Source of the DNA: Candidatus Tayloriibacteriota bacterium
GTDB taxonomy: Bacteria > Patescibacteriota > Minisyncoccia > Phycocordibacterales > CAIRYW01
Direction of reading: 5' to 3'
NCBI GenBank assembly: GCA_028286725.1
Contig: JAQBQZ010000013.1
Span: 15,216-79,215 of the forward strand
DNA: 64,000 nucleotides
The position numbers and the translations under genes were made by a program. Position 1 is the first letter of the stretch. Each line of letters starts with the position of its first letter. The notes beneath the pieces are model-generated. The model searched no databases, was not told the origin of the DNA, and worked only from the letters and a program-made list of their open reading frames with translations. Positions 9,914 to 19,654 of this stretch are shown here, piece by piece.

Positions 9914-10663
9914 ATGAAAAAAAGACATCTCGGAGTTTTAATACTTATAATTATTCTTGCGTTTGTTGCAGGATATTTGTGGCAGGTAACACACAAACTG
10001 GGAGAGCTCAAATCTTCCATTCAAGAAATCAGATTTGGAGGAAAGCAAGATAAATATGAGATAGATGCAGCATACCCAGTGATCGAATCAGGAGTGCCAG
10101 AAAACATAAAAAACAGCATCAATACAGAGCTTGAAAAGTGGGCAAGAGATGGGGCAGAAAAAAGCAAATCAGAATTTGAAGATCTTTTGAAGGATCCAGA
10201 GCTTGCAGGCTCTGATCTCGGGCTTATGTATTCAAGTACTGTGTCCGTCAAAAGCGATTTCAAAAAACTTCCGTACATCAATGTTTCTTTTGAAATCTAT
10301 GATTATTCTGGAGGGGCGCACGGGATCACCGCAGTTTCAACATTTGTCTATGACGCGAATACTGGAGAGAAAATAACTCTAGATAAAGTATTCTCTGGAA
10401 ATTATTTAAATACGCTTTCAACGCTCTCGCTTGCCGAGCTCAAAAAAACAGATCCAAAACTTGAGACATATAGTTTTGCGGAAGATGGGACAAAGCCTGT
10501 GGCTGACAACTTCCAAACATGGACTCTCGAACCTGATGGAATACATTTTGTGTTTAGTGATTATCAGGTTGGTCCATACTCTAGCGGAAGACCAGAGATC
10601 GTACTTTCTTATGAATCGCTAAATAGCGTTCTTAATCCAGAATTCAAGAAATCTCTTTATTAA
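9914..10663 (+). CDS. membrane-anchored DUF4163/DUF3298-type protein
   Basis: N-terminal TM; YPVIESGVPENIKNSINTELEKWA and SGGAHGITAVSTFVYD motifs. Confidence 0.5.
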   Translation: MKKRHLGVLILIIILAFVAGYLWQVTHKLGELKSSIQEIRFGGKQDKYEIDAAYPVIESGVPENIKNSINTELEKWARDGAEKSKSEFEDLLKDPELAGSDLGLMYSSTVSVKSDFKKLPYINVSFEIYDYSGGAHGITAVSTFVYDANTGEKITLDKVFSGNYLNTLSTLSLAELKKTDPKLETYSFAEDGTKPVADNFQTWTLEPDGIHFVFSDYQVGPYSSGRPEIVLSYESLNSVLNPEFKKSLY

Positions 10664-10742
10664 TAGGCTATCAAAAGAAATACTAGATTTATATTGATTT
10701 TTCTGGTATAAATTGATTACTTCATATTTTTGAAGGATGTAT

Positions 10743-10814
10743 GGCGACTATAGTTTAGTGGCAAAACTCCGGTTTGTGGAACCGGTATCGAGAGTTCGAT
10801 TCTCTCTAGCCGCC
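10743..10814 (+). tRNA. tRNA-His (anticodon GTG) with encoded G-1
   Basis: Extra 5-prime G pairs with discriminator C73. Acceptor GCGACTA/TAGCCGC has one A-C mismatch. D-arm GTTT AGTGGCA AAAC, anticodon CCGGT TTGTGGA ACCGG, T-arm GAGAG TTCGATT CTCTC. Confidence 0.75.
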
Positions 10815-10829
10815 CATGATTTAAAAAAG

Positions 10830-10860
10830 AAAACACCCTCTGCTGGGTGTTTTCTTTTTT
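10830..10860 (+). terminator. terminator after tRNA-His
   Basis: aaaacaccctctgctgggtgtttt followed by a T-run. Confidence 0.6.
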
Positions 10861-10872
10861 AATCACAGCGAA

Positions 10873-11104
10873 GCTAGAGAGAATCGAATGGCGGAGGCAT
10901 ATTTTCTGAGTACAGAAAATGCCGAGCCGGTGCCCAGGACAAATACGAGCGACGGCGAGTATTTAGTCCGCGGGCGATTCTCTCTAGCCCTCGGGGACTT
11001 GCGTGAGAGAATCGAAGCCCGATTGAGCAAATTTTGAGAGTGAAGCGAATCAAAATTTCCAATCGGGATACTGGTCGTGTAACGACCGATAGCTCTCTAG
11101 CCGC
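10873..11104. repeat. cluster of four partial tRNA-His 3-prime-half copies, alternating inverted and direct
   Basis: A inverted 10873-10888 gctagagagaatcgaa; B direct 10976-10990 cgattctctctagcc; C inverted 11005-11016 gagagaatcgaa; D direct 11088-11104 cgatagctctctagccgc. B and C form a long imperfect hairpin. Confidence 0.7.
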
Positions 11105-11129
11105 TTCCCAAATCTGCTATAATTATCTA

Positions 11130-11750
11130 ATGACCACCCTCCCAATTATCGGTATGAGCCCAGGCAATAGCTACTTTAAATATGGAGTAGTAAAAGAATT
11201 ACTTCAGAAAGTTGTAGAGAAATATGGAAAAGCTGCAATCATGATTGCCGATGTTCCAGCGATTTCAACTTATGTTGCACTTGGGTATCCTCAGAATAGA
11301 GCAAGAAGGGATAAAGCTCTTCCTCAAGGTAATGCGCTCAAAAATAAAGTTAAGAAAGCTATGGTTGAATTAGGCTACAGCGCAGATCAAGTGATAATTA
11401 TTGATTGGAAAAATCAAATTGAAAATAATTCAGAATACAAAGAAAAATATAGTTTGATAGAAGGGTTGTATCAAACCAATTCTTTGTTTCAAAACGCTGC
11501 AGACGCTACGACAAAAGGTATATTGGCTGGCGCAGGCGAGGAGATTCTTGATTTACCTGATTCAATAAAAATCGCTGCGCATTATCTCTTGGCAGAGATC
11601 GCTTTTATGGAATTTGCTCCAGACTTTTTGAAAGTAAAAAAGGCTACATATATTTACCATAGAAGCTGGCCAGTATTTGAAAGTTATATAGACGGGAAGT
11701 TTGATGATAAATCAAAAGATTATTTAGGATTTGAGATTATTGAGATTTAA
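11130..11750 (+). CDS. tRNA-dependent cyclodipeptide synthase (CDPS, AlbC-like)
   Basis: GMSPGNSYF pocket motif (AlbC has GISAGNSYF, with the catalytic Ser), HYLLAEIAF (Y-x-x-x-E pair) and ATYIYH. Start at 11130 (MTTLPIIG) preferred; the ORF is open from 11034 through repeat D. Confidence 0.7.
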   Translation: MTTLPIIGMSPGNSYFKYGVVKELLQKVVEKYGKAAIMIADVPAISTYVALGYPQNRARRDKALPQGNALKNKVKKAMVELGYSADQVIIIDWKNQIENNSEYKEKYSLIEGLYQTNSLFQNAADATTKGILAGAGEEILDLPDSIKIAAHYLLAEIAFMEFAPDFLKVKKATYIYHRSWPVFESYIDGKFDDKSKDYLGFEIIEI

Positions 11751-13322: not shown

Positions 13323-13691
13323 ATGAAATCCTCAACACAACCAGCGTCTCAAATCTGCTCTATTTGTCATGCGTCAATACTGCCTTCATATTATTTCTGT
13401 CCAAACTGCGGCAATAAAGTAAACACTCCACCTCTCTCAACATCAATTACAACTCAGATCGGTATCTATGCTTTTAGTATCATTCTTCCAATGATTGGTT
13501 TTATACTTGTGACTAAATGGCCCGGAGTTCAATATTTCAAATCAAAAGATGAGAAAACAAAAAAGATCGGGATCATCGCATGGTCTCTTCTTATACTTTC
13601 AACACTCATCACGATCTGGCTTGCGTATATATGGACGCTCGACACGATTCAGTCGGTAAGTCAGAGTATTAATACAGACATGGGCTTTTAA
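13323..13691 (+). CDS. zinc-ribbon-containing membrane protein
   Basis: CSIC...CPNCG followed by TM helices. Confidence 0.4.
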   Translation: MKSSTQPASQICSICHASILPSYYFCPNCGNKVNTPPLSTSITTQIGIYAFSIILPMIGFILVTKWPGVQYFKSKDEKTKKIGIIAWSLLILSTLITIWLAYIWTLDTIQSVSQSINTDMGF

Positions 13692-15229: not shown

Positions 15230-15685
15230 TCATTTTACTAAAACCGCTGCAGGGAAGTCCTCGTGCCAGTTACCGCTTAGAAGATAATTGCCAAATACCC
15301 AATTGCCGCCAGTCCAGGAAATATATCGAACATAGAGATCTCCTTCAGGACTTCGATCTATCGTGCCCCAGAAAAATATATATTGAGCATTATCTTTTGG
15401 ACCGATCTTCCAGTTCTCAGGGATTTCATTGTGATGGTCTCTTAAATATTGCCAGATTGTTGCATTAAGTACATTTATATTCTGCTCTTTGAGATGTTCG
15501 TAGAGATCGTTGCCGCGGATCGAGCCTCCGAGTTGTACAGGATCGAGGTGGAGGTTAAGTTTTTCTTTGATATCTGCAAATACAATAACACCATCGTGCG
15601 TCCAGTTTTCAGCAATGGTCCAGAGCTCTCCATATATATGTGGGTTTTGTGTTGTATCTATAGGTGTCAGTGTCGTGTCTGTCAT
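15230..15685 (-). CDS. hypothetical protein
   Basis: 151-aa ORF; family not recognised. Confidence 0.4.
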   Translation of the reverse strand: MTDTTLTPIDTTQNPHIYGELWTIAENWTHDGVIVFADIKEKLNLHLDPVQLGGSIRGNDLYEHLKEQNINVLNATIWQYLRDHHNEIPENWKIGPKDNAQYIFFWGTIDRSPEGDLYVRYISWTGGNWVFGNYLLSGNWHEDFPAAVLVK

Positions 15686-15818: not shown

Positions 15819-16130
15819 ATGATCCTCAATAATCTCAAAAAAATAACTTCAACAATTCTCGTTATCGCATCATTTATTTTTGGTGCGAATATTATTTATT
15901 CTTGGACTGCTCCATCAGGTACTCCTCCGACAGCTGATGCACCGACTCCTATAAACATCGGCCCTAATACTCAACTCAAGACTGGAGCGTTTGGAATAGA
16001 TGGTAATTTTTTGGTAGTAGGTAACACAGCATTCACAGGTAAAATAAAGATTGCTGACGGATCACAGGGTGCAGGGAAGTACCTAACATCAGACAAGGAC
16101 GGAAACGCTACTTGGAAGCAATTACCATAA
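15819..16130 (+). CDS. secreted protein, paralog 1 of a three-member family (short form)
   Basis: N-terminal TM, W-x-A-P-S/T-x-P-P, PINxG, QLKxGxxGI/V, GKxxxADG, GNAxWKxLP. Confidence 0.55.
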   Translation: MILNNLKKITSTILVIASFIFGANIIYSWTAPSGTPPTADAPTPINIGPNTQLKTGAFGIDGNFLVVGNTAFTGKIKIADGSQGAGKYLTSDKDGNATWKQLP

Positions 16131-16140
16131 TTTTCTTCAT

Positions 16141-16473
16141 ATGGATCTACACATACAGCAAAAATCTTTTCTCGATATCTTTCTTAAGACGCTTATTTAT
16201 CTTGTTCTCGCCTTTATTATCGTTTGGAGCAGTGTTGTTGCGTATGATGAATATGATATTTATGCAACGGTCTTTCCAGAAGTTATTCCATATACTCCTC
16301 CAGTAGCAGCACCTCTTACAGATTCTGAAAAAGCAGACATTGCAGAAAACCTCAACGCAACGACCACGGTATTTAAACCTGAAGATGCGGCACAAAAATT
16401 AAATGCTATTCCAAAACCAAAAAGCACTTTAACGGATGAAGAGAAAAATAAGATCTTGCAGGGACTAGAATAA
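16141..16473 (+). CDS. small membrane protein
   Basis: TM helix; Pro/Ala-rich tail. Confidence 0.35.
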   Translation: MDLHIQQKSFLDIFLKTLIYLVLAFIIVWSSVVAYDEYDIYATVFPEVIPYTPPVAAPLTDSEKADIAENLNATTTVFKPEDAAQKLNAIPKPKSTLTDEEKNKILQGLE

Positions 16474-16477
16474 ATTT

Positions 16478-17068
16478 ATGAAAAGAAATATATACATCAT
16501 TTTGGCTTTAATTTTTCTCGGCGCTGGTGCCGTCAATCTTTATGCATGGAAAACACCGACTGCAACTCCACCTTCTCAAGGTGTTCAGCCACCAGTAACC
16601 GCTCTCATCAATGAACAGCTCAAAGCTGGAACACTTGGTGTAAACGGTATGTTCGCGGTATTCGGTAATGCTGTTTTGTCTGGAGGAGTTAAGATTGCTG
16701 ACGGAACACAAAAAGAATTCTATGTACTGACATCTGACAGTGCGGGTAATGCATCATGGAAATCTCTTCCTGCTAAGCCTGTAACTACACACAAGCTTGG
16801 TCTCGGGGATTGTCCAGCAGGTTCTACTAAAATGACTGATCGTGGGCTCGCATATTGTGGATACTGGGTAAACACTGGTGCGGCATCATATTGTAATAAA
16901 GGGGATCTTCGTATCGCCGCTGTTGATACAGGGACAAGCGCACACAAAGGAGGGAACCACGGTATAACACTTGCCGAGCCTAATGGATGTATCGGATGGG
17001 AAGGGCCAAGCAACTTTGGTGGCCCTGGATGTGCGGTACAATGTCGAACAACAACGGTATACCAATAA
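16478..17068 (+). CDS. secreted protein, paralog 2, with a Cys-rich C-terminal domain
   Basis: Same N-terminal module as paralog 1, plus a C-terminal 8-Cys domain. Confidence 0.55.
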   Translation: MKRNIYIILALIFLGAGAVNLYAWKTPTATPPSQGVQPPVTALINEQLKAGTLGVNGMFAVFGNAVLSGGVKIADGTQKEFYVLTSDSAGNASWKSLPAKPVTTHKLGLGDCPAGSTKMTDRGLAYCGYWVNTGAASYCNKGDLRIAAVDTGTSAHKGGNHGITLAEPNGCIGWEGPSNFGGPGCAVQCRTTTVYQ

Positions 17069-17073
17069 AATCT

Positions 17074-17703
17074 ATGAATAAAAAAATAAAAACATTAATA
17101 TTCTTGTCTACTGCGTTTGCACTCGTTGTTACTTTAAATGATGTAGTAACGTCTTGGGCTCCGCCAACATCAAGCGCTCCTGCAGGAGACACTGTGCCTC
17201 CAATAAATGAAGGATCTACTGCACAGAGAAAATTAGGTAACTTGGGTGTTGGAGGACTAGCATCATTTGGAGGCGCGACATTTACAGGTAAGGTTCAGAT
17301 CAAGAATGGTACAGAAGGCGAGGGAAGAATATTGGTCACTGATGGTGTGGGAAATACAAGATGGGTAACACCTCCTGTATATAATCCAAATGGAGCATGC
17401 CCAGACGGTACGGTGAAAAGAAGTGATGGGCAGTGCGGGTATGCATACACACTAACTAGTAGTGGATATTTTTACTGTTCTCCTGGTGATGACCGAACTT
17501 CTTGGTATGACTCAGGACAGGGACGAAATCACACTGCGGGACCACTCGAACCAAATGGTTGTTATGCATTTGAAGGAAGACACAACAACGGAGGGCCTGG
17601 CTGTACCATGACTTGTATTGGAGCTGTTAAAATGTGTATGAAGATTGTGAATGGGGATGCAGAGTGGTATCTCTCAGGTCCAGATAAGGTTTGTAATCAA
17701 TAA
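17074..17703 (+). CDS. secreted protein, paralog 3, with a divergent Cys-rich C-terminal domain
   Basis: Start at MNKKIK (the ORF is open upstream into paralog 2). Shared N-terminal module with a different Cys-rich C-terminus. Confidence 0.55.
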   Translation: MNKKIKTLIFLSTAFALVVTLNDVVTSWAPPTSSAPAGDTVPPINEGSTAQRKLGNLGVGGLASFGGATFTGKVQIKNGTEGEGRILVTDGVGNTRWVTPPVYNPNGACPDGTVKRSDGQCGYAYTLTSSGYFYCSPGDDRTSWYDSGQGRNHTAGPLEPNGCYAFEGRHNNGGPGCTMTCIGAVKMCMKIVNGDAEWYLSGPDKVCNQ

Positions 17704-17715
17704 CTAAAAGCAGTT

Positions 17716-19074
17716 ATGAACAAAAAATTTTCTTTATATTCAAAATTTTTTGTCACTGCTCAAACTATTGTCATACTCCTTATGGGGGCAGGACTCTCTT
17801 GGTATTTTGGGTATATCGTATATGAAAACGAAAAGAGTGCTCTTATAAATAGAGTTTATAATATTGCAACAACGTTGGATTCTGACACTATATCAGGACT
17901 CAGGGGCGATCCTACAGATCTTTCAAATCCAAATTATGTTTATCTCAAAAAGAAATTGGTGGATCTGCGAAATGTGAATACAGATGCGAGATTTTTGTAT
18001 GTGCTTGGATATCGACCTGCTGTAGAAAAATTATTCTTTTATGCCGATTCAGAGAGTCCTGATTCTGTGGATACTTATTCTCCTCCAGGTGAACTCTATA
18101 ATCAAACAACGAAGCTTGAGATCGATAATTTTTTGCGGGGCATAGCGTTTGCAGAGAATCCATATTCGGATGACTGGGGAAGATGGGTGAGCGCGTCAGC
18201 ACCAATAATCTCATCAGAGACCGGACTACCGATTGCAATGGTGGGTATTGATATTGACGCAAGCAAGCTCATTAAAGATATTGTGCTTGTGTCCCTCTTT
18301 CCATTTATTATTGCGATAATTCTCGCAATACTTTTCTTTGTATTTCATAAGATGAGAATGCGAGAAAAACTAAATGAGCTCAATAACGTAAAGCTCGAGT
18401 TCTCTTCTTTTATGTCTCATGAGATCAGGGGATTTGTAACAAAAGTAAAAGGCGGACTTCGGGCACTCGAACATGAGGATTTTGGAATACTGACTCCTGA
18501 TCAATCTTCGTATGTCAAAGATATGATAGTTCAGAGCGATGAGTTTGCTGAGCTTGTAGAAGAATTTCTTGATGTTGGTCATCTCGAACAGGATATTGAA
18601 ATGTCGCTTCTTATGGAGAACTACAATATTTTGGATATCTTGAAGAGGGTTGTGGCGGATATTGCCGATACGCTTCATCGAAAAGAAATATCTATTATCT
18701 ACGAAGGAAATATTCCTGACAAAGTATATTGTCCGTGCGATAACAACAAGATGGGACGGGTGTTCTCAAATATTCTTTTGAATGCCGCAAAATATTCTCC
18801 AGAAAAAAGCTCGATCCGAATCGGGTATGTAGATGCGAATACTTCGCATACTATTTATATCAAAGATTCTGGTATTGGTATCCCAGATTCACAAAAAGAA
18901 AGCATGTTCAAAAAATTCTTCCGTGCTAATAACGCGAGAGATATACATACATCAGGAACTGGGCTTGGGCTTTATTTCTCAAAACTCATTGTTGAGAAGC
19001 ATCGAGGAAGGATCTGGTATGAATCTGTAGAAGGGAATGGAACTACGTTTTATATCTCATTACCAAAACAGTAG
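17716..19074 (+). CDS. sensor histidine kinase with an extracytoplasmic domain; no adjacent response regulator
   Basis: H-box FMSHEIRGF and HATPase motifs (NILLNAAKYSP, DSGIGIP, GTGLGLYFSK). Confidence 0.75.
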   Translation: MNKKFSLYSKFFVTAQTIVILLMGAGLSWYFGYIVYENEKSALINRVYNIATTLDSDTISGLRGDPTDLSNPNYVYLKKKLVDLRNVNTDARFLYVLGYRPAVEKLFFYADSESPDSVDTYSPPGELYNQTTKLEIDNFLRGIAFAENPYSDDWGRWVSASAPIISSETGLPIAMVGIDIDASKLIKDIVLVSLFPFIIAIILAILFFVFHKMRMREKLNELNNVKLEFSSFMSHEIRGFVTKVKGGLRALEHEDFGILTPDQSSYVKDMIVQSDEFAELVEEFLDVGHLEQDIEMSLLMENYNILDILKRVVADIADTLHRKEISIIYEGNIPDKVYCPCDNNKMGRVFSNILLNAAKYSPEKSSIRIGYVDANTSHTIYIKDSGIGIPDSQKESMFKKFFRANNARDIHTSGTGLGLYFSKLIVEKHRGRIWYESVEGNGTTFYISLPKQ

Positions 19075-19088
19075 GAAATTTACACAAA

Positions 19089-19122
19089 AATCAGCCGCGC
19101 CCAAAGGGCGCGGCTGATTTTT
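19089..19122 (+). terminator. terminator
   Basis: aatcagccgcgcccaaagggcgcggctgattttt. Confidence 0.7.
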
Positions 19123-19654
19123 ACCCAGGACACTATCCCGTTGACATTTCTATATTGAGGAGTATCCTATATCTTATGTTAAAAGTTACGCGAAATTTCT
19201 TTGGTTTCTATTTTTGGAACAATCCCAAACAGGATTAGTGATTTTGCGTAACCTCCAAAAACACCAATTCTGTAAAAGGGATTGGTGTTTTTTATTAAAC
19301 TATTTTGTTCGCTTTCGGGATGGTGTGCTTCTACAGCGGAGCATACCTATCCGACAGGGAAAACCTAGGAATCTGATTGTTCATTTTCAAACCACATAAA
19401 TCATGAAACTAAACGTAAATATTGTTACACTGGCACTGTTTTTTCAACAGCTGGCAATAATATCTTCGAATGCGAAGACAAAACCAACTGCTGTTAGTCA
19501 GCGCGGTACTGTCGCTGTCCTTGAGTTTTCAGTAGAAGCAATTGAGTCGGTGGATTTTATTACCACTACTCTTTGTTCTGCTAGTAACGGAGTGGCATGC
19601 AGTGGTGTTCAGGTGGAATGACTTGATGGCAATTCGGAATTAAATCTCCGTCTT

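Follow-up and report, generated by a model that had tools for sequence, protein, structure and literature searches.

Three paralogous proteins, termed P1, P2 and P3, were encoded in a 64,000-nt stretch of contig JAQBQZ010000013.1 from a Candidatus Tayloriibacteriota bacterium (the whole stretch is called the window). They were interpreted, at a probability of about 0.5, as short, probably trimeric, cell-surface binding fibres, and the locus as a candidate miniature-fibre operon; the interpretation draws on sequence comparison and on predicted structures. The genes lay co-directionally on the + strand in the order P1, a membrane protein of 110 amino acids (aa), P2, P3 and a histidine kinase, and related loci in other genomes were labelled L001–L015. 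The features of the locus were as follows.

15819..16130, + strand: P1 (103 aa), the head-less paralog, identified from the open reading frame (ORF) list, BLASTP and alignment
15819-15902, + strand: probable signal peptide of P1, aa 1-28
15903-15971, + strand: leader of P1, beginning at W29
15972-16127, + strand: fibre repeat unit of P1, one copy, aa 52-103
16141..16473, + strand: small single-pass membrane protein (110 aa)
16478..17068, + strand: P2 (196 aa)
16478-16546, + strand: probable signal peptide of P2, aa 1-23
16547-16615, + strand: leader of P2, W24-46
16616-16771, + strand: fibre unit of P2, aa 47-98, followed by a linker
16802-17047, + strand: head of P2, 6 Cys, aa 109-190
17074..17703, + strand: P3 (209 aa)
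17074-17154, + strand: probable signal peptide of P3, aa 1-27
17155-17223, + strand: leader of P3, W28-50
17224-17376, + strand: fibre unit of P3, aa 51-101
17398-17700, + strand: head of P3 (8 Cys) together with its C-terminal extension, aa 109-209
17716..19074, + strand: sensor histidine kinase (452 aa)
19086..19122, + strand: intrinsic terminator hairpin AAAATCAGCCGCGCCC-AAA-GGGCGCGGCTGATTTTT and then a T-run, read from the sequence

The intergenic gaps in the five-gene block were 10, 4, 5 and 12 bp, and the terminator hairpin started 12 nt past the stop codon of the kinase gene. Because all gaps were within 4–12 bp and a strong hairpin with a T-run directly followed the kinase stop, the five genes form one operon ending at the hairpin at 19086-19122. 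Comparison with all orthologues placed the true start of P3 at the ATG at 17074; the ATG at 16987 given by the ORF finder overlaps P2. An earlier reading of the DNA by a model (the sequence-only reading) had described the three paralogs as consecutive genes. They were found to be interrupted, as the conserved gene of the 110-aa membrane protein (16141-16473) separates P1 from P2. The P2 protein was identical to the hypothetical protein JWP09_826 of a Candidatus Taylorbacteria metagenome-assembled genome. The flanking genes were housekeeping genes, encoding a phosphoenolpyruvate (PEP)-utilising enzyme and prephenate dehydratase in the window, with NusG and L11 near the loci of relatives, and the G+C content of the locus was not deviant.

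By pairwise BLASTP comparison the three proteins are paralogous. P1 and P2 aligned with an expectation value (E) of 6e-25 and 43% identity, and the pairs P2/P3 and P1/P3 aligned at E 2e-30 and E 6e-17, respectively. The sequence-only reading had proposed paralogs that share an N-terminal module behind a signal or anchor. This was borne out by the significant alignment of every pair and by the hydrophobic N-termini, and the motifs that it listed were invariant columns in the family alignments. The Cys-rich domains, for their part, were not placed in any known intracellular family. The shared module was composed of a hydrophobic N-terminus or signal, a Pro-rich leader and one fibre repeat of ~55 aa, and the family profile, A3, found only three copies of it in the 64-kb window, namely P1, P2 and P3.

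A3 was compared exhaustively by HMMER with 1.84 billion cluster representatives. At E ≤ 1e-3 it matched 7,915 protein clusters, of which 1,233 reached E ≤ 1e-10, and word-indexed homologue searches gave close relatives only (7, 5 and 20 proteins). The anatomy of the module was derived from local re-scoring of the proteins listed by the A3 search, 186 of which were in hand. Profile positions ~1–50 contained the signal segment and the leader 'W-T-x-P-T-x-x-P-P-x-G-N-V-x-A-P-I-N-x-G-x-x-x-Q-x-K', which was N-terminal in 61 small (≤350 aa) and 23 large proteins of this set. The leader-bearing relatives with a named source came from Candidatus Nomurabacteria, Paceibacterota, Pacebacteria, Taylorbacteria or the 'Patescibacteria group', and are of Parcubacteria type. 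The tails of the small leader-bearing relatives were very diverse, comprising several Cys-rich types, Cys-free beta-rich types, or no tail. Two of these tails were read by eye as a phage tail-collar motif, and NCBIfam gave nothing in one of the two. Scans of P1–P3, the small membrane protein and the 151-aa protein encoded upstream against Pfam, NCBIfam and PHROGs gave no meaningful match, and no paper on this protein family in Patescibacteria was found in literature searches.

The N-termini of P1–P3 were hydrophobic, as calculated from the sequence, and they probably form a Sec signal peptide that is cleaved just before an invariant Trp, because a conserved −3/−1 pattern precedes this residue. 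In 83 leader-bearing proteins, position −1 before the conserved aromatic residue was Ala, Ser, Thr or Gly in 83%, position −3 was Val, Ala, Ile, Ser, Leu, Thr or Gly in 86%, and position +1 was Trp in 94%; the prefix before the aromatic residue had a median of 27 residues. With regard to the signal or transmembrane anchor of the sequence-only reading, the hydrophobic N-terminus was retained, and the −3/−1 pattern favours a cleaved signal peptide over a membrane anchor. Two other types of N-terminus were rejected. A type IV pilin or pseudopilin was looked for by its class III signal (a short basic leader, Gly at −1, Phe or Met at +1 and Glu at +5, before a hydrophobic helix); there was no G-F-T-L-I-E class III motif, and the conserved motif lay after the hydrophobic segment, not before it. 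A lipoprotein was rejected, with no lipobox Cys found.

The fibre repeat unit occupied profile positions ~50–105. By hmmsearch it was present once in each of P1–P3 and in 4–11 copies in proteins of 800–2,600 aa, for example a Chryseobacterium 'beta strand repeat-containing protein' and a Bacteroidales 'collagen-like protein'. Some of these multi-repeat proteins carried Peptidase_S74, Peptidase_G2, collagen-like or type IX secretion system (T9SS) sorting domains, the match to the autoproteolytic Peptidase_G2 being weak and under the Pfam cut-off. Neither Pfam nor NCBIfam contained a model for the repeat unit itself.

The unit was connected to known structures through its larger relatives. The multi-repeat, leader-bearing relative P0034 matched the Bdellovibrio bacteriovorus fibre protein Bd2133 (PDB code 8OND) with an E of 3e-8. 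A profile built from the three window units and 27 units from large proteins, A6, matched 8OND at E 2.2e-19 and also matched the Bdellovibrio fibre structures 8OJN, 8OML, 8OL4 and 8ON4. The A6 alignment was collinear ('x-G-N-V-G-I-G-T-x-x-P-x-A-K-L-x-V-x-G-x-V-K-I-x-D-G-T-Q-G-x-G-K-V-L-T-S-D-A-x-G-x-A-x-W'), and the corresponding window units read 'Q-L-K-A-G-T-L-G-V-N-G...G-G-V-K-I-A-D-G-T-Q...L-T-S-D-S-A-G-N-A-S-W'. The full unit mapped to residues 201–255 of the 8OND chain, which are residues 862–916 of the protein. This region contains the end of the second trimeric beta-helix and the linker 'AAGAAT', and W913 is the first residue of the beta-sandwich tip (PMC10769870). These profile matches make the window repeat unit a homologue of the trimeric beta-helix in the 'mosaic adhesive trimer' (MAT) fibres of Bdellovibrio. 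The likeness to tail-fibre and adhesin stalks in the candidate phyla radiation (CPR), suggested by the sequence-only reading, was thus strengthened by the ~7,900 clusters, which include giant S74/G2 proteins, by the 8OND match, and by the Parcubacteria-type Patescibacteria from which the source-named leader-bearing relatives came. In phages the unit was rare (5 of 50,697 records). Nocardia phages P69 and NC1 carried it (E 5e-8), as did Rhodococcus phage E3 in gp204 (E 2e-5), a protein with the annotation 'putative tail fibre protein'; a tblastn search of the N-terminal module against phages gave sub-significant matches only.

The comparison was extended to whole fibres, with the MATs of B. bacteriovorus such as Bd2133 (8OND), of the non-S74 subgroup, as the reference (Caulton et al. 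2024, PMC10769870). P1–P3 share with them a homologous beta-helix repeat with the pattern 'GNVGIGT..KL.V.G...' and a short linker ending in Trp, and the hydrophobic N-termini of P1–P3 probably correspond to the signal peptide of the MATs. A C-terminal beta-sandwich tip, predicted for P2 and P3, and the combination of a common stalk with tips that vary widely between members were further likenesses. No S74 match was found in P1–P3, as fits the non-S74 subgroup, and P1 had no tip. By analogy, P1–P3 would work like non-S74 MATs or tail fibres, with a shared stalk repeat and an exchangeable beta-sandwich tip. However, P1–P3 are 103–209 aa long and contain one repeat, whereas the Bd2133 precursor has 1,031 aa and many repeats. 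In all 21 MATs a beta-rich domain of ~130 aa follows the signal peptide (PMC10769870), whereas P1–P3 lack this domain and have a 23-aa Pro-rich leader instead. Furthermore, the tip of P2 and P3 is Cys-rich with a different predicted fold, and trimerization of P1–P3 is putative. The organism of the window is presumably monoderm, as Patescibacteria generally are. The phage tail fibres and tailspikes that end in an intramolecular chaperone (the endosialidase-chaperone domain Peptidase_S74) and the giant Bacteroidota fibre proteins resemble P1–P3 in the repeat unit, which they contain in 4–11 copies. They differ in that P1–P3 have no S74/G2 chaperone domain, stand in no phage context and are more than 10-fold smaller.

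P2 and P3 carried Cys-rich heads at their C-termini, and P1 had no head and zero Cys. The sequence-only reading had described the two C-terminal domains as unrelated, with 8 to 10 Cys. In fact, the BLASTP alignment of P2 and P3 extended through the C-termini, and the heads were homologous with 45% identity over 73 columns, equal to the identity of the stalk unit; the heads contained 6 (P2) and 8 (P3) Cys. Most family members had an even number of Cys (6, 8 or 10), which would be expected of extracellular disulfides.

AlphaFold2 models of P2 and P3 were calculated from family alignments of 24 and 19 sequences. The modelled head was all-beta with predicted local distance difference test (pLDDT) values of 71–88, and the sole predicted helix was the signal segment. 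A Foldseek search with the head model gave resistin as the top match (E 0.03, probability 1.0), which was a moderate fold match, and the predicted head corresponded to the disulfide-rich six-stranded beta-sandwich fold of resistin/PCSK9 modules. No match to P2 and P3 was found in Pfam at E ≤ 1, and a search of PDB sequences with the family profile gave none at E ≤ 10. An hhalign comparison with an approximate human resistin sequence gave a probability of 0.7%. The head is called resistin-like in predicted fold only, because no sequence relation was detected. Compared with resistin, the resistin-like molecules (RELM) and PCSK9, the heads have 6–8 Cys over ~80–100 residues and not 10 in ~55, the spacing differs, and the RELM signature of 10–11 Cys ending in CC was not present. 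In addition, the stalk of P2 and P3 is a beta repeat and not the alpha-helical coiled coil of resistin, and the host is bacterial. Resistin heads pack as trimers, and in the C-terminal domain of PCSK9 three modules of this kind are related by pseudo-threefold symmetry; such packing would fit a head placed on a trimeric stalk.

The head was rare and conserved. Of the best 150 matches, no more than six cluster representatives contained it, although lower-scoring head-only relatives are possible below that cut-off, and it was present in 3 of 185,579 species genomes scanned with the P3 group. No relative of the head family was found in 2.9 million viral contigs. Among P2 orthologues, the mean identity fell from 82% in the head to 66% in the unit and 49% in the leader, and among P3 orthologues the head (68%) was similar to the unit (73%). 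Diversifying tips, which the sequence-only reading had proposed and had set in the context of a presumed episymbiotic lifestyle, were rejected for this locus, since P2 is best conserved in its head; the proposal held across the family, in which the tails of the small relatives are diverse.

The 110-aa protein encoded between P1 and P2 had a hydrophobic segment at ~aa 10–35, a Pro-rich linker and two 'L-T-D-x-E-K-x-x-I-x-x-L' motifs. The block consisting of a 151-aa gene (− strand), P1, the membrane protein, P2, P3 and the kinase was conserved in four further genomes (L001 = L009, L003/L004, L006/L007 and L008), with identities of 68–81% for P1, 56–76% for the membrane protein, 64–77% for P2, 63–85% for P3 and 79–83% for the kinase. 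Deeper relatives (L010, L013–L015 and L005) kept a core of the small membrane protein with P2-like and P3-like genes. L010 and the metagenomic L013–L015, which are the 3 loci of the L010 lineage added by a metagenome scan, had 43–47% identity to P3, and L005 belongs to Candidatus Pacebacteria. At all of these loci the small membrane protein had the same position and architecture beside the gene pair, and at L010 its similarity to the protein of the window was significant (E 2e-5). P1 and the kinase were absent from L005, L010 and L013–L015, where SHMT or EamA genes followed instead. P1 and the kinase are specific to the clade of the window and lie outside the conserved core.

The small membrane proteins form a family of ~95–120 aa with a single, N-terminal membrane pass. 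The motif '[ST]-x-x-[EQ]-K-x-x-[IVM]-[LF]-x-x-[LI]' occurs in them once or twice, and no Pfam or NCBIfam model matched the family. A second member followed the gene pair in L013–L015, and in L011 (Nomurabacteria) a similar small membrane gene was located near a leader-bearing 617-aa fibre gene. A secreted protein with the repeated motif 'G-Y-A-W-S-x-N-I-G-W-I/V-x-F', absent from the window, adjoined the small membrane protein and fibre genes at several loci. The positions were as follows.

Small membrane proteins: window 16141-16473; L010 228-542; L014 3692-4003 and 5263-5580; L005 7018-7356; L011 3361-3648
GYAW-repeat protein: L011 3651-4949; L013 790-1758; L014 2729-3688; L015 781-1749

The last gene of the operon encoded a histidine kinase with Pfam matches to HATPase_c (1e-24) and HisKA (1e-05; 25.9 bits against a gathering score of 26.9 bits). 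The HisKA His was located in 'SHEIRG', and kinase cores in the PDB matched at E 1e-33. Two hydrophobic segments, at residues ~11–35 and 189–207, bracketed an outside loop of ~150 aa, which had no match in Pfam or the PDB. The co-directional kinase with an extracytoplasmic domain was thereby confirmed. Its lack of a response regulator in the window was confirmed as well: a phmmer search with approximate CheY and PhoB sequences found none among window ORFs of at least 60 aa (best E 0.89), nor did the genes called at the orthologous loci include one. The adjacency of kinase and paralogs was upheld within the clade of the window and did not extend to the gene pairs of L005, L010 and L013–L015.

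In the proposed mechanism, P1–P3 would be exported by the Sec pathway and their signal peptides cut before the invariant Trp. The mature proteins would begin with the Pro-rich leader, followed by exactly one beta-helix unit, and this single unit would drive trimerization into homo-trimers or, because P1, P2 and P3 all share the unit, possibly hetero-trimers. The heads of P2 and P3 would form a disulfide-stabilised trimeric tip on the cell surface that binds a conserved ligand, in the role of an adhesin or receptor-binding protein. For the small membrane protein, a part in holding or assembling the fibres is possible.

Several observations weigh against this proposal. The support for all family members comes from sequence comparison and models. 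The A3 profile of the window family alone gave no match in the PDB, so the link to Bd2133 is transitive, though consistent in order and invariant residues. The A6 profile that makes the link is dominated by units from large proteins, and both the stalk fold and trimerization derive from Bd2133 homology. In the monomer AlphaFold2 models the pLDDT of the stalk was <50, and a lone unit of 55 residues may be too short for a stable trimeric beta-helix. Cleavage of the signal peptide was read from a simple −3/−1 count, and the segment may instead be an uncleaved membrane anchor. In addition, the similarity to the small membrane protein of the window was marginal for the L011 gene (E 1e-3) and undetectable for L005; because it was marginal or undetectable beyond L010, the association of membrane protein and fibre genes is positional and architectural, and suggestive.

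Other explanations were weighed on the same evidence. P1–P3 might be structural parts of the envelope, such as short spacers or connectors of an S-layer, the cell wall or a pilus-associated structure with the membrane protein as the base. The strong conservation of the heads would suit a fixed structural partner, all lineages kept the genes in one order with two headed paralogs as a pair, and the leader motif is common to many proteins of Patescibacteria. However, neither the genes nor their neighbours showed an S-layer, pilus or cell-wall-binding domain, and in the characterised Bdellovibrio proteins the homologous repeats are parts of adhesive fibres whose tips bind ligands (PMC10769870). 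A structural role was considered improbable, though the least so of the alternatives. Slightly less credence was given to P1–P3 as secreted ligands or co-sensors of the adjacent kinase, which would bind its outside loop alone or with a captured molecule and so control kinase activity, as a module for autocrine or contact sensing. A gap of 12 bp separates P3 from the kinase gene, both belong to one operon with a shared terminator, and the adjacency is kept in the four other genomes at 79–83% kinase identity. The sensor loop of the kinase matches no domain, which leaves room for such a ligand; furthermore, proteins of the resistin family are extracellular signalling molecules. Yet no kinase stood beside the gene pairs in L005, L010 and L013–L015, so fibre genes would work without it. 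The window, moreover, contained no response regulator, and the stalk repeat comes from a structural-fibre family and not from signalling peptides.

A still lower rank was assigned to P2 and P3 as secreted antibacterial or host-damaging effectors, in which the resistin-like head would bind to target membranes and permeabilise them, like RELM-beta and resistin in animals, and the membrane protein would be the immunity or export partner. The predicted fold resembles resistin and RELM-beta, for which bactericidal activity is reported (PMC13647132, PMC8253364). Both P2 and P3 are small Cys-rich proteins that are probably secreted, and the small membrane protein is always encoded alongside. Set against this were the lack of a sequence relation to resistin (0.7% by hhalign and no Pfam match) with a moderate fold match, and an N-terminal module that is a fibre repeat typical of surface adhesins. 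The head is also strongly conserved rather than variable as in an arms race, and no toxin or immunity domains were detected in Pfam or NCBIfam. A remnant of prophage tail fibres, to which the occurrence of the unit in a few phage genomes (Rhodococcus phage E3 gp204 and Nocardia phages P69 and NC1) might point, was close to refuted by the housekeeping flanks, the stable synteny across species and the normal G+C content. There was also no PHROGs match, no relative of the head in the viral contigs, and the unit in only 5 of the phage records. The cell-surface binding fibre was retained as the preferred interpretation.

Further features were observed around the locus. Upstream of the operon and divergent from it, a Trp-rich 151-aa protein was encoded at 15230-15685 (− strand). 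It has no signal peptide and was kept in position in all genomes of the window clade with 69–83% identity; in the deeper relatives of the locus the gene was not in that position. At 13323-13691 (+ strand), a 122-aa ORF contained, by eye, an N-terminal zinc-ribbon motif followed by hydrophobic membrane-like stretches, its zinc-ribbon matches in Pfam being weak and under the curated cut-off (best E 2e-4, 21.5 bits). L003 likewise had a 122-aa gene upstream of the cassette.

Downstream of the operon, the region 19141-19365 had 83–89% DNA identity in all orthologous loci and no Rfam match. It contained a promoter-like TTGACA-16-TATCCT sequence and a 20-codon ORF (19176-19238) encoding MLKVTRNFFGFYFWNNPKQD, with a run of Phe, Tyr and Trp codons; between loci the ORF differed by synonymous changes at third positions. 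A terminator hairpin followed the ORF at ~19258-19294, with a compensatory change in L001 and a fold z-score of −6.5. Pairing is possible between the last part of the ORF, GGATTAGTGATTTTG, and the 5' arm of this terminator, and the alternative pairing could act as an antiterminator. Because prephenate dehydratase (in the window) and DAHP synthase (in L003) are encoded downstream of the element, it looks like a ribosome-mediated attenuator for aromatic amino acids in a CPR genome. In L011, a bAvd gene and a reverse transcriptase (RVT_1) gene of opposite strand shared an overlap of ~50 bp at 10150-11523. The pair, for which the 617-aa fibre gene with the leader lay ~3 kb upstream, suggests a diversity-generating retroelement.

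A wider proposal, held to be unlikely and offered as speculation, is that the locus represents an undescribed, Parcubacteria-wide fibre system. Miniature, possibly heterotrimeric fibres, made of proteins of the P1, P2 and P3 type with the common 'W-T-x-P-T..P-P' leader, would dock on the small single-pass membrane proteins with 'T-x-x-E-K-x-x-I-L' motifs, the heads here would be the first prokaryotic resistin-like ones, and in the window clade ligand capture would be read by the orphan kinase, coupling contact to signalling. What is new here is the combination of miniature one-repeat fibres, a leader of Patescibacteria type and a rare head that is predicted to be resistin-like, and nothing in it contradicts current understanding.

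A dependence on cell-cell contact is generally assumed for Patescibacteria, yet few of their surface proteins are understood. The locus ties a family of ~7,900 clusters, for which Pfam and NCBIfam have no model, to structurally characterised adhesive trimeric fibres. With one repeat and a head, P2 and P3 would be the smallest natural examples of this fibre class and should be easy to express and crystallise, and the predicted head would provide a bacterial example of the disulfide-rich resistin/PCSK9-like fold. If the heads bind surface molecules of a host, they would be candidates for host recognition and, should they communicate with the kinase encoded next to them, a rare handle on signalling in reduced genomes.

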